From: Nitrospinota bacterium
GTDB taxonomy: Bacteria; JADFOP01
NCBI GenBank assembly: GCA_022562795.1
Contig: JADFOP010000023.1
Coordinates: forward strand, 1 to 33,013
Direction: 5' to 3'
Length of the DNA: 33,013 nucleotides
Below, in pieces: positions 414 through 29,682 of this stretch (position 1 is the first letter of the stretch; each line of letters begins with the position of its first letter). The position numbers and the translations under genes were made by a program. Under the pieces are notes generated by a model. That model had not been told where the DNA came from and did no database searches. It saw only the letters and a list, made by a program, of their open reading frames with translations.

Positions 414-538
414 AATCATTGAGTTATGGGAGGAATTGTCCCATATTTGTCCCATAACGCCCACAATATGGGAAACGCAACACTGTCAGCTATTGATTTT
501 ACTGGTCGAGACGGCCGGATTCGAACCCGCGCCCACCG
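414..538 (-). mobile_element. att-like site: degenerate tRNA-Pro 3' end plus arm-type repeats and IHF-like sites
   Basis: 503-538 matches the tRNA-Pro 3' end (2292-2327) at 31/36 nt (23/25 over 503-527) and includes CCA. TTGTCCCATA occurs at 436 and 447, and inverted TATGGGA at 425 and 467. One-mismatch WATCAANNNNTTR sites lie at 414-426 (+) and 486-498 (-). Confidence 0.6.
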
Positions 539-548
539 AAGCCGTGGC

Positions 549-1301
549 CTAGGCCGGCTTGATGGCCCGGAACGTCGCACCGATGGTCTCGTCGGAAGTC
601 TGGTAGCCGGTGAGGTCGACCTGCTCCGCCTCGGCGAACCCCGCCTTTTCGAGCAATGCCAGGAACTCCGTTCCCGGTAGGGCCCCGGCCACTCATTGGC
701 TCCACAGATCGGGGTCTTGAAGGGCCTCCGGCGGCAGGGGTTTCAAAAGAAGCATGTCCGCCACCATGAATCGCCCCCCGGGCTTGAGAACGCGGTGGAT
801 TTCTAAGAGCAGCGGCCTCTTTTCCGGCAGGAGGTTGATAACACCGTTGGAGATTACGACGTCGCATAGTTCATCGGCGAGCGGCAGGTTCTCGGCCAGC
901 CCTCGGAAGACCAAGACCTGCTTGGCCCCCTGAGCCTCGACGTTCTGGCGGGCCTTCTCGACCATCTCCGGGACCATGTCGAATCCAACGACGCTTCCCG
1001 TAGGGCCCACGAGTCGGGCCGCGATCAAGGCGTCGAGCCCGCTTCCGCACCCAACGTCAAGGACCGTCTCTCCAGGCTTGATGGGCCCGAGGCTGAAAGG
1101 GTTTCCAACCCCCGCGAAGGCCTCGGTGACCTCCGTCGGAAAGGAGTCGACCAGCTCTTCAGGATAACCCACAGCCTTTGCGCTCTCAGGCCCGATCGGA
1201 AATGGGGAGACCTGGGCTACCGCTACGCCGCTGAATCGGTACCAGATCTTGTTCCTGATCTCTTCGATGACCTCTTGGGGGAAGGACTCTCCAGGGCTCA
1301 C
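549..1301 (-). CDS. ArsM-like class I SAM-dependent methyltransferase, probable selenoprotein (UGA at 695-693 = Sec), about 250 aa
   Basis: Motifs GVGNP, VLDVGCGSGLD and VVISNGVINL. After the TGA the frame continues VAGALPGTEFLALLEKAGF...GATFRAIKPA to TAG at 551-549, matching the ArsM C-terminus (W..C[IV]AGAL...AGF...A.KP). GTG start at 1301 is preceded by GGAGAGG. Confidence 0.88.
659..677 (-). promoter_or_regulatory. Bacterial SECIS-like hairpin
   Basis: Minus strand CCGGGAAC-GGA-GTTCCTGG: 8-bp stem with one G-U pair, G-initiated apical loop 23 nt 3' of the UGA. Confidence 0.7.
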
Positions 1302-1504
1302 GATACCCTCTCCACGTTGGATTTCCTGGGAATTTGGGAATCTATTGACAAACGACAAACGCGCTCATAACGAGCGGATACCGTCCGGTTGGAATTCTAC
1401 ATTTGTGGGAGCTAAAAGAAAAGTAAGATTTTTTATGAGCAGGAGAGGGTGATTTGCTCTCTCAACCTAAGGGCGAGGACGTCGTCGGGAAGGAGAAGTT
1501 AAGC

Positions 1505-2200
1505 CTAGCCAGTACATGGGTAAATGGGAGGAAGGTCCTTCATGCCTGGAGGGGGCTTCGTAAAATACTTTGAATTTAATTTTTGGATGCGGGCCTGGTC
1601 TAACCTGAATTTTTTAATTTTAGGATTGTAGGGATAGCCGGTCTCGGTGAACCCCATTATGCAGCGGTTCGAACCATTTGGATTCTCCCACTCGATCTTT
1701 ACGGCGAAATACATCTTTCCTCCTTCATCGAGGTAGTCTAGCTTTCCCTCGATGGGATTGGACTTTAAAATCGCCTCAAAGGTGGCCCCTGGTTTAATAA
1801 CGGACGTAGTAGGGGCCTTTCGAAATTTCTTTCCCAGTAGGTTTGCGAAATATTCAAACGGATCGGGTAACACCGTTTTCGATTCATCCCATCGAGTGCC
1901 GTTATAATGTTGAAAATTGATTTTAAGATTGGATGCCGTGTAATCGCTGACGTTGATTACCTTTATTAATGATGTGACCGCTACAGGACCTTCGAGGAGC
2001 CGGGCGTTGCCTGATTTAACAATTTCCAGGGTGGCAACTCGCTGGATTGCAGTCGCGCCAGGCGCGGCAGGCGCGCGAGACGCGGTAGGCGAGGGAGTCG
2101 CGCCAGGCGAGGGAGGCGAGGAAATCAAATCTTTACCTACTACCAGGACAACAACGCCAACCAAGACCACTAAGAAAACTGCTATGAGGAATTTTTTCAC
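1505..2200 (-). CDS. Hypothetical membrane-anchored/exported protein
   Basis: 231-aa ORF with basic N-terminus, hydrophobic anchor and Pro/Ala/Ser linker. Visibly AT-richer than the core genes. Confidence 0.75.
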   Translation of the reverse strand: MKKFLIAVFLVVLVGVVVLVVGKDLISSPPSPGATPSPTASRAPAAPGATAIQRVATLEIVKSGNARLLEGPVAVTSLIKVINVSDYTASNLKINFQHYNGTRWDESKTVLPDPFEYFANLLGKKFRKAPTTSVIKPGATFEAILKSNPIEGKLDYLDEGGKMYFAVKIEWENPNGSNRCIMGFTETGYPYNPKIKKFRLDQARIQKLNSKYFTKPPPGMKDLPPIYPCTG

Positions 2201-2291: not shown

Positions 2292-2368
2292 TGGTCGGGG
2301 CGGCCGGATTCGAACCGGCGACCCCCGGCTCCCAAAGCCGGTGCGCTACCAGGCTGCGCTACGCCCCG
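2292..2368 (-). tRNA. tRNA-Pro(TGG)
   Basis: CGGGGCGTAGCGCAGCCTGGTAGCGCACCGGCTTTGGGAGCCGGGGGTCGCCGGTTCGAATCCGGCCGCCCCGACCA: 77-nt cloverleaf, anticodon TGG, encoded CCA. Confidence 0.98.
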
Positions 2369-29315: not shown

Positions 29316-29682
29316 GGGGGCGAACAGGGCTCGACGGGGAGGAATGACGTCGAGGCTGCATGTCGAGGCCCGCGACCTCGTAAAATACGCGGAACATGAC
29401 AACTGCCAATCCACAACTGGCAATGGCCGCTTAACCAGCAGTGGCCCGTGCCTTTCCGCATTCGCCTCTGGGGCGGTAAGGGGCGTCAGACTACAGGGGT
29501 GGACGATCCGGCAGGCGCCGATGGGCCGGGAGCCGTCCTTAATTTAAGTCGGCTAGCCTCCCGGGCGGTGTCCCTGTCGGTGGGGCGGCGCGGGCGGCGA
29601 AGCTTCAAATACACCGGATAAGCATGTAGATGTCTCGGGGAAACCTCTTCGGACGGGGGTTCGATTCCCCCCGCCTCCACCA
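29316..29682 (+). ncRNA. ssrA: tmRNA; tag (A)ANPQLAMAA* at 29405-29434
   Basis: 5' GGGGGCG...CTCGAC; 3' GGGGGTTCGATTCCCCCCGCCTCCACCA; tag ORF ends in AA*; directly downstream of smpB. Confidence 0.97.

Follow-up and report, generated by a model that had tools for sequence, protein, structure and literature searches.

Does the ArsM-like methyltransferase gene near one end of the window stop at the TGA codon where gene callers stop it, or is that TGA read as selenocysteine (Sec), and what might such an enzyme act on? The window is the whole stretch of DNA analysed here, 33,013 nt from a Nitrospinota bacterium (contig JADFOP010000023.1). Read directly, the gene occupies 1301..549 on the minus strand, from a GTG start (1301-1299) to a TAG stop (551-549), with a TGA in frame at 695-693 following ...DLWSQ and 47 further open codons (VAGALPGTEF...RAIKPA) leading on to the TAG. 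The read-through product has 250 residues, of which Sec is residue 203, versus 202 if translation ended at the TGA. The GTG start is backed by the 202-residue database product and by the N-termini of close homologs, and a likely ribosome-binding site, GGAGAGGG, lies 4 nt ahead of it (1306..1313, minus strand). The extension after the TGA (549..692, minus strand; 47 codons plus the stop) is conserved in homologs and usually omitted by gene callers. The initial annotation had reported this TGA with its 47 open codons, and a hairpin with a G-initiated loop 23 nt after the UGA; direct reading of the sequence agrees with it on each.

The column of the TGA (693..695, minus strand) was examined in alignments of homologs. 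All 17 full-length homologs have Cys there, within the motif W-x-x-C-[IV]-[AG]-G, and all five short homologs end one residue earlier. This is the pattern of a Sec gene, in which an in-frame UGA falls on the Cys of homologs and the frame is conserved beyond it. The best 120 database hits comprise 68 that end at W-x-x (including the window's own 202-residue product, P0002), 42 with Cys, one with Ser and nine outside the pattern used. Every one of the 13 closest clusters (P0002-P0014, 71-100% identity) is cut at the TGA site, and the same stop position recurs in homologs down to ~45% identity. In 17 of 32 parsed sources the stop proved to be a TGA at precisely the motif position, followed by a conserved peptide. 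Another phylum, the one holding locus L035, was surveyed in 301 sampled genomes, 81 of which gave a match at E <= 1e-40; one in-frame TGA is present in each of the 22 best matches, and 29 of 97 among the matches listed carry a TGA.

Sequence variation in other samples bears on the same codon. Two metagenome contigs from two other studies span the TGA with no difference at 693-695 (X1 record 2, covering 541-1386, and X2 record 15, covering 567-1500), and they differ from the window at 10 and 12 other positions, respectively. Near-identical copies of the gene that keep the TGA were found in sediment metagenomes of several studies. Among the differences listed between the gene and other samples, 10 of 16 fall at third codon positions, and in the part after the TGA 4 of 5 do. 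A sequencing error at the TGA was considered and is ruled out by the recurrent stop position in homologs and by the TGA-bearing contigs of the two studies. The initial annotation had made its case depend on homologs aligning Cys with the TGA and on the codon not being a misread TGC, TGT or TGG, and on both counts the case has held. Partial cover of the gene came from run X17 (652-684 and 949-1261) and run X19 (528-680 and 772-803), with none at 400-473, a pattern that bears on neither expression nor absence; an RNA-library contig covers 528-680 only and says nothing on translation. The numbers of promoters and terminators predicted across 380-2420 fell within the range expected of shuffled sequence.

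The predicted structure extends across the TGA. The AF2 model of the read-through protein has a pLDDT of 95.1 over the whole length and a pTM of 0.92, and the residue blocks of 201-250 score 95-98, with a helix at 210-219 and strands at 223-230 and 239-247. Since the residues after the TGA are predicted to form a confident part of the fold, a 202-residue product would miss part of that fold, two strands included. If the TGA were a true stop, the gene would yield a 202-residue truncated protein or be a pseudogene, and the downstream frame would be a leftover; the public gene calls of ~202 residues, and the lack of selA and selB matches in the assembly described below, would agree with this. It would, however, have to explain an identical stop position in 68 of the 120 best homologs down to ~45% identity, a downstream frame that is conserved and varies mostly at third codon positions, the loss of residues 203-250 from the predicted fold, and a conserved hairpin with compensatory changes. 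We find a true stop scarcely credible. Going by the sequence comparisons, the TGA very probably encodes selenocysteine in an ArsM-like SAM methyltransferase.

Bacterial SECIS elements are stem-loops that closely follow the UGA on its 3′ side and have a G in their apical loop. Just such a SECIS-like hairpin is found at 677-659 (659..677, minus strand), where an 8-bp stem pairs 677-670 with 666-659 and closes on a GGA loop (669-667); the spacing from UGA to loop is exactly 23 nt, and the stem occupies positions 19-26 and 30-37 when numbered from the U of the UGA. Its fold energy is not below that of shuffled sequence (z = -0.16; RNAfold on 630-700, minus strand), so support for the hairpin is comparative. 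Across 11 homologs in the same register, pairing holds in 98.9% of cells, versus no more than 64.8% with a slid 3′ arm, in a comparison that drew on sequences outside the clade formed by the window gene and its 71-88% identical homologs. Two stem pairs have changed on both sides and are thus compensatory: pair 24-32 is A-U in nine homologs and U-A in two, and the loop-closing pair 26-30 is A-U in five, G-C in four and C-G in one, with one sequence unpaired. The stem overlaps a conserved peptide, PGxxFL. Pair 26-30 joins a second codon position (Lys/Arg/Thr) to a synonymous third position of the next codon, and its covariation is therefore hard to explain by protein selection alone. In other subgroups the hairpin is offset by a few bases, with loops that begin with G; a search for related loci gave four metagenome and three genome loci, all at no more than 52% identity. 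The median local hairpin energy is -12.8 kcal/mol in 18 Sec-form genes versus -6.1 kcal/mol in eight Cys-form genes, a difference to be read with the Cys controls all belonging to the SNCV branch and the sequences being related. A search of 380-760 against Rfam at E <= 10 gave chance-level matches only, with no tRNA or SECIS family among them.

Decoding of UGA as Sec needs its own machinery, which we sought in the source assembly (97.1% complete, 84 contigs). The tRNA-Sec gene (C58:1708-1801) is present, with a Rfam score of 77.6 bits and the anticodon TCA by ARAGORN. The selD gene is also present, truncated by a contig end (C41:1-672, minus strand), and itself contains a TGA, in GGG-U-ACK. 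Two genes of the AhpC/TSA family have an in-frame TGA, in W-U-P-W-C (C1:42483-42824) and in W-U-H-Y-C (C48:7533-7901), and these W-U-x-x-C genes probably encode thiol-disulfide oxidoreductase or peroxiredoxin-like selenoproteins. The formate dehydrogenase profile TIGR01553 found no TGA-containing gene in the source genome. Among 1,120 open frames measured from stop to stop and at least 300 codons long, 484 end in TGA, and genome-wide reassignment of TGA, which we also considered, is excluded by this use as a normal stop. Two further matches belong to the same inventory. A separate 72-residue match to the C-terminus of SelD falls within a longer open frame at C77:16036-16257. ARAGORN also reports a second tRNA-SeC (C58:15724-15811), but no gene is there: ~14 kb downstream of the real tRNA-Sec, its 3′-terminal 57 nt are repeated without a mismatch, which is the signature of an element integrated into selC.

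Neither selA (profiles TIGR00474 and PF03841) nor, above cut-off, selB (TIGR00475 and PF09107) was found in this 97.1%-complete assembly, and tblastn with SelA and SelB of the same genus gave only EF-Tu-like matches in the source genome. The initial annotation had named a lack of selABC in a complete genome as a refutation; here selC is present, selA and selB were not found in the incomplete assembly, and the missing pair is the main caveat to the Sec reading. In a genome of the same genus (G001) and one of the same class (G002), selA and selB are both present and adjoin scpA-scpB. The genes that flank selA-selB in these relatives sit, in the source genome, near the start of C52 (1-1900) and near the end of the 3.75-kb C3 (2700-3750). 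Both contig ends face the expected selA-selB interval, and the sequence adjoining them is unlike that of the relative; tblastn and blastn with the relatives' selA, selB and neighbour genes found no selA or selB remnant at the two ends.

One explanation of these observations is that this strain has recently lost selA and selB, so that its selenoprotein genes, the window gene included, are no longer decoded and have begun to decay. The absence of both genes from a 97.1%-complete assembly and the rearrangement here of the neighbourhood that holds them in relatives fit this account. It sits poorly, however, with an intact tRNA-Sec, with selD and at least three other genes keeping an in-frame TGA and open frames on both sides of it, with the near-identical TGA-bearing copies of the window gene in sediment metagenomes of several studies, and with contig ends that flank the expected position and both face the gap; we consider a recent loss very unlikely. 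A gap in assembly or binning is the explanation of the missing genes in which we have high confidence.

Turning to the protein, the read-through product (CDS 549..1301, minus strand) matches Pfam Methyltransf_31 at 110.8 bits against a cut-off of 27, which places it among the class I SAM methyltransferases (Methyltransf_31/_11/_25), and the confident AF2 model shows the alternating strands and helices of a Rossmann-like fold. Its best solved matches are ArsM enzymes. The closest PDB sequence is 5evj (3.8e-32 by HMMER), and the best fold match found with Foldseek on the AF2 model is 4fr0 (TM 0.75, rmsd 2.2 Å, 35% identity). The HMMER alignment to 5evj pairs FWGCGNP with FAGVGNP, SNCVINL with SNGVINL, and ECLAGAL with Q-[TGA]-VAGAL. 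In this alignment Val and Gly take the place of the two ArsM motif cysteines that lie upstream, and the TGA falls on the third; the N-terminal 60 residues likewise lack Cys. Of the four cysteines required in ArsM (44, 72, 174 and 224 in CmArsM), only the equivalent of 224 is present, as the putative Sec, and the 174-224 pair is also incomplete. The comparison supports placing the Sec at the position of CmArsM Cys224 and hAS3MT Cys206. The initial annotation had recognized both the C-terminal conserved Cys of ArsM/AS3MT at the TGA and the replacement of the other motif cysteines (GVGNP, SNGV), and the 5evj alignment, with Cys in 17 of 17 homologs at the former, substantiates it.

These replacements extend well beyond the window gene. 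In the best 120 hits together with the window product, the variable position of GxGNP is Thr in 56, Val in 44, Ser in one and Leu in one (19 unmatched), and that of SNxV is Gly in 112, Val in five and Ala in one (three unmatched), with Cys at neither; no Cys column in the homolog alignment is invariant or at least 90% conserved. As judged from these alignments, loss of the other ArsM cysteines is a trait of the whole subfamily and not special to the window gene. Four of the homologs (P0051, P0057, P0065 and P0090, of 411-415 residues) have a match to the mercury-transport family MerC (PF03203) besides the methyltransferase domain.

A quick maximum-likelihood tree was built from 147 rows, namely the window product, the 120 database hits and the locus proteins with X at the TGA, none omitted; the sample is biased towards relatives of the window protein, and the tree is arbitrarily rooted. 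Nine canonical SNCV/Cys forms are split from all others by a branch with 99% SH-aLRT support. On the single-chalcogen side, Sec and Cys forms are interspersed, with at least 16 changes of the Sec label, seven of them forced by well-supported branches. The window protein's own clade has 14 rows, all Sec.

How the gene came to its present place can be read from its surroundings. A decayed direct repeat of the 3′ end of tRNA-Pro (503..534, minus strand; 28 of 32 positions match) starts 14 bases after the TAG, at 534, and forms the outer border of a segment whose inner border is an intact tRNA-Pro gene (TGG anticodon; 2292..2368, minus strand), called by both ARAGORN and Rfam. Between them, 535-2291 contains only the methyltransferase gene and a second open reading frame (1505..2200, minus strand) for a 231-residue protein with a hydrophobic N-terminus, for which Pfam gave no match at E <= 0.1. 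No integrase gene was seen within the segment. In the same-genus genome G001, the 19 nt that follow the repeat here directly follow tRNA-Pro, with 15 of 19 identical, which represents the empty site (L088 2933-3028), and the contig from run X1 departs from the window sequence at 541. From the decayed tRNA-Pro copy, the empty site in the relative, the departure of the X1 contig and the two-gene content of the segment, we conclude that a ~1.8-kb insertion at tRNA-Pro brought the methyltransferase gene into this genome. Elsewhere in the window is an ordinary tmRNA gene (29316-29682, plus strand) with the tag peptide ANPQLAMAA, which marks the source as bacterial.

Our best explanation as a whole, to which we assign a probability of roughly 0.85, is a 250-residue single-chalcogen ArsM/AS3MT-like Sec methyltransferase, with hairpin-directed recoding of the UGA, a selenol that acts as single ligand or nucleophile, and a gene inserted at tRNA-Pro. 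Under this explanation the hairpin at 677-659 would direct SelB and tRNA-Sec to insert selenocysteine at the UGA (695-693). The enzyme would be a SAM-dependent methyltransferase of a large subfamily that appears to keep one ArsM active-site chalcogen, that of CmArsM Cys224 and hAS3MT Cys206, and in which Sec and Cys seem to have replaced each other many times. The inferred selenol may hold a soft substrate with a lone pair beside the SAM methyl, acting as its sole covalent ligand or nucleophile; candidate substrates would be a dimethylated arsenical or, in the form of an Se-S or Se-Se adduct, a sulfur or selenium species. The proposals of the initial annotation, Se, Te or Sb species or thiols as substrates and a possible methyl-Sec intermediate, are speculative.

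The choice of substrate turns on how many thiolates canonical enzymes use. According to sections of two studies (PMC3877260, PMC6138428), the number of Cys ligands falls from three for inorganic As(III) to two for MAs(III) and a single one for DMAs(III); the same sections report that the human AS3MT mutants C156S and C206S have no activity towards As(III) or MAs(III), and that the first methylation requires the full set of four conserved Cys. Because an enzyme working canonically has to offer As(III) three thiolates, or MAs(III) two, the one chalcogen predicted here would make that mechanism impossible; the initial annotation had likewise supposed that the multi-thiol As(III) site was missing, and our alignments point the same way. 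Given these thiolate requirements, we lean towards a single-ligand species as the substrate over inorganic arsenite handled canonically.

An ordinary arsenite methyltransferase could still be imagined, in which the Sec holds As(III) or MAs(III) jointly with external thiols, from glutathione-type conjugates or a partner protein, that replace the lost cysteines. The nearest solved folds and sequences are indeed ArsM/AS3MT, the reviews, in the entries cited below, file the Sec family as 'arsenite methyltransferase', the ArsM subfamily model NF008823 is the next NCBIfam match after three Sec models, and a second ligand might come from the additional Sec or Cys module that fused relatives carry. 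The window protein, however, has no such second module, it scores 204.4 bits against NF008823, under the cut-off of 263, and it lacks three of the four cysteines that the cited sections (PMC6138428, PMC3877260) describe as required. Nor do its relatives sit among arsenic genes, as no ArsR, ACR3/ArsB or ArsC family member occurs within ~1.5 kb of the gene in 23 Sec-form loci. An ordinary arsenite methyltransferase is therefore an improbable reading of the gene, and we return to the single-chalcogen enzyme as the preferred one.

A bolder form of that preferred reading is that the GVGNP / SNGV / W-x-x-U/C branch is a distinct enzyme class, not an arsenite methyltransferase, whose lone selenol or thiol carries single-ligand substrates, and which may spread in marine-sediment bacteria as the cargo of very small, integrase-less, tRNA-flanked insertions. 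We offer this as a speculation that we ourselves doubt. If it were true, examples of the reaction would be a third methylation, turning dimethylarsenite into volatile trimethylarsine, or one in which sulfide or selenide receives the methyl group while held as an Se-S or Se-Se adduct.

The consequences for annotation are more immediate. Public gene calls end the protein, like most of its close relatives, at residue 202, losing the predicted active-site Sec and the last two predicted strands, and since 68 of the 120 best hits are cut at the Sec site, databases under-describe the family systematically. A branch unable to bind As(III) canonically may account for thousands of the proteins annotated as 'arsenite methyltransferase', which matters wherever arsM counts in sediment metagenomes are taken as arsenic-methylation potential. 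Neither the annotation gap nor the non-canonical branch is new in kind.

The window protein can be compared with three groups of known enzymes. Canonical ArsM/AS3MT (CmArsM 4fr0, CrArsM 5evj and human AS3MT 8xt7) share its fold, its SAM-binding core and a chalcogen at Cys224/Cys206. Unlike them, the window protein has no equivalents of Cys44, Cys72 and Cys174 and no C-terminal domain, it has Sec in place of Cys, and it lies across the 99% SH-aLRT branch from the canonical SNCV forms.

The second group is the Sec arsenite methyltransferase of the NF008823/PRK11873 type (Fomenko et al. 2007, Science 315:387). In the table of a 2026 review (PMC13188914) it is entered as 'Arsenite methyltransferase, NF008823, UxxG, 1 Sec', under 'Experimentally verified' and with Fomenko et al. 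2007 as the reference, and an excerpt of a 2022 review (PMC9312934) carries the same entry. Fomenko et al. are credited, in a passage of another paper (PMC4211708), with proposing Cys157 and Cys207 of mouse AS3MT as active-site residues. By these descriptions the 2007 protein is of the same family with the same Sec position, the U-V-A-G of the window protein fits UxxG, and it likewise has one Sec, paired with the active-site Cys206/Cys207 of AS3MT; the window protein falls below the NF008823 cut-off, and its likeness to the 2007 protein is drawn from the review descriptions only. The text of BSepDB has no mention of 'methyltransferase' or 'arsenite'.

The third group comprises the three Sec models of NCBIfam, whose fused families, ArsM/AhpD, ArsM/DUF2284 and UXPK-star, the 2026 review (PMC13188914) credits, in its relevant passage, to Haft and Tolstoy 2025; a literature search for UXPK selenoproteins matched this review alone. 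The best NCBIfam match of the window protein is NF041537 (ArsM/AhpD; 276.6 bits, cut-off 510), followed by NF047649 (methyltransferase/UXPK-star; 269.3 bits, cut-off 460; model positions 9-249 of 283) and NF041536 (ArsM/DUF2284; 246 bits, cut-off 575). All three matches cover the methyltransferase part only (model ~10-249 in NF041537 and NF041536), and the window protein has neither the AhpD nor the DUF2284 domain whose fusion, with a further Sec, defines the NF041537 and NF041536 families. Members of NF047649 share with it a ~49% identical methyltransferase domain, the motifs W-x-Q-U-[IV]-G-G, GVGNP and SNGV, and a hairpin in the same register. True UXPK-star members, of which we identified L038 (505.9 bits) and L039 (472.6 bits) as well as L035 and L036, have two TGA each. 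They differ from the window protein, which ends at residue 250, in a C-terminal tail of ~34 residues ending in the second Sec, and no U-x-P-K tail or comparable sequence lies 3′ of the window TAG in the sequence as read. They are also flanked by a flavin reductase and a second methyltransferase, and the window gene by neither. Among UXPK-star loci (L048, L051 and L055), a flavin-reductase-like gene and a second Methyltransf_11 gene recur near the double-Sec methyltransferase.

The initial annotation had presented the Sec ArsM-like enzyme as a novelty and had itself suspected that such proteins might already be catalogued. The suspicion proved right and the novelty does not stand, as the kind is credited to 2007 in the entries of the two reviews, and NCBIfam holds three Sec models (NF047649, NF041536 and NF041537). 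With the Sec form of the ArsM-like family known since 2007, the window gene is a sound find and not a new kind: a genuine misannotated selenoprotein gene, whose product is a stand-alone, single-Sec member of the family outside the cut-offs of the curated models.
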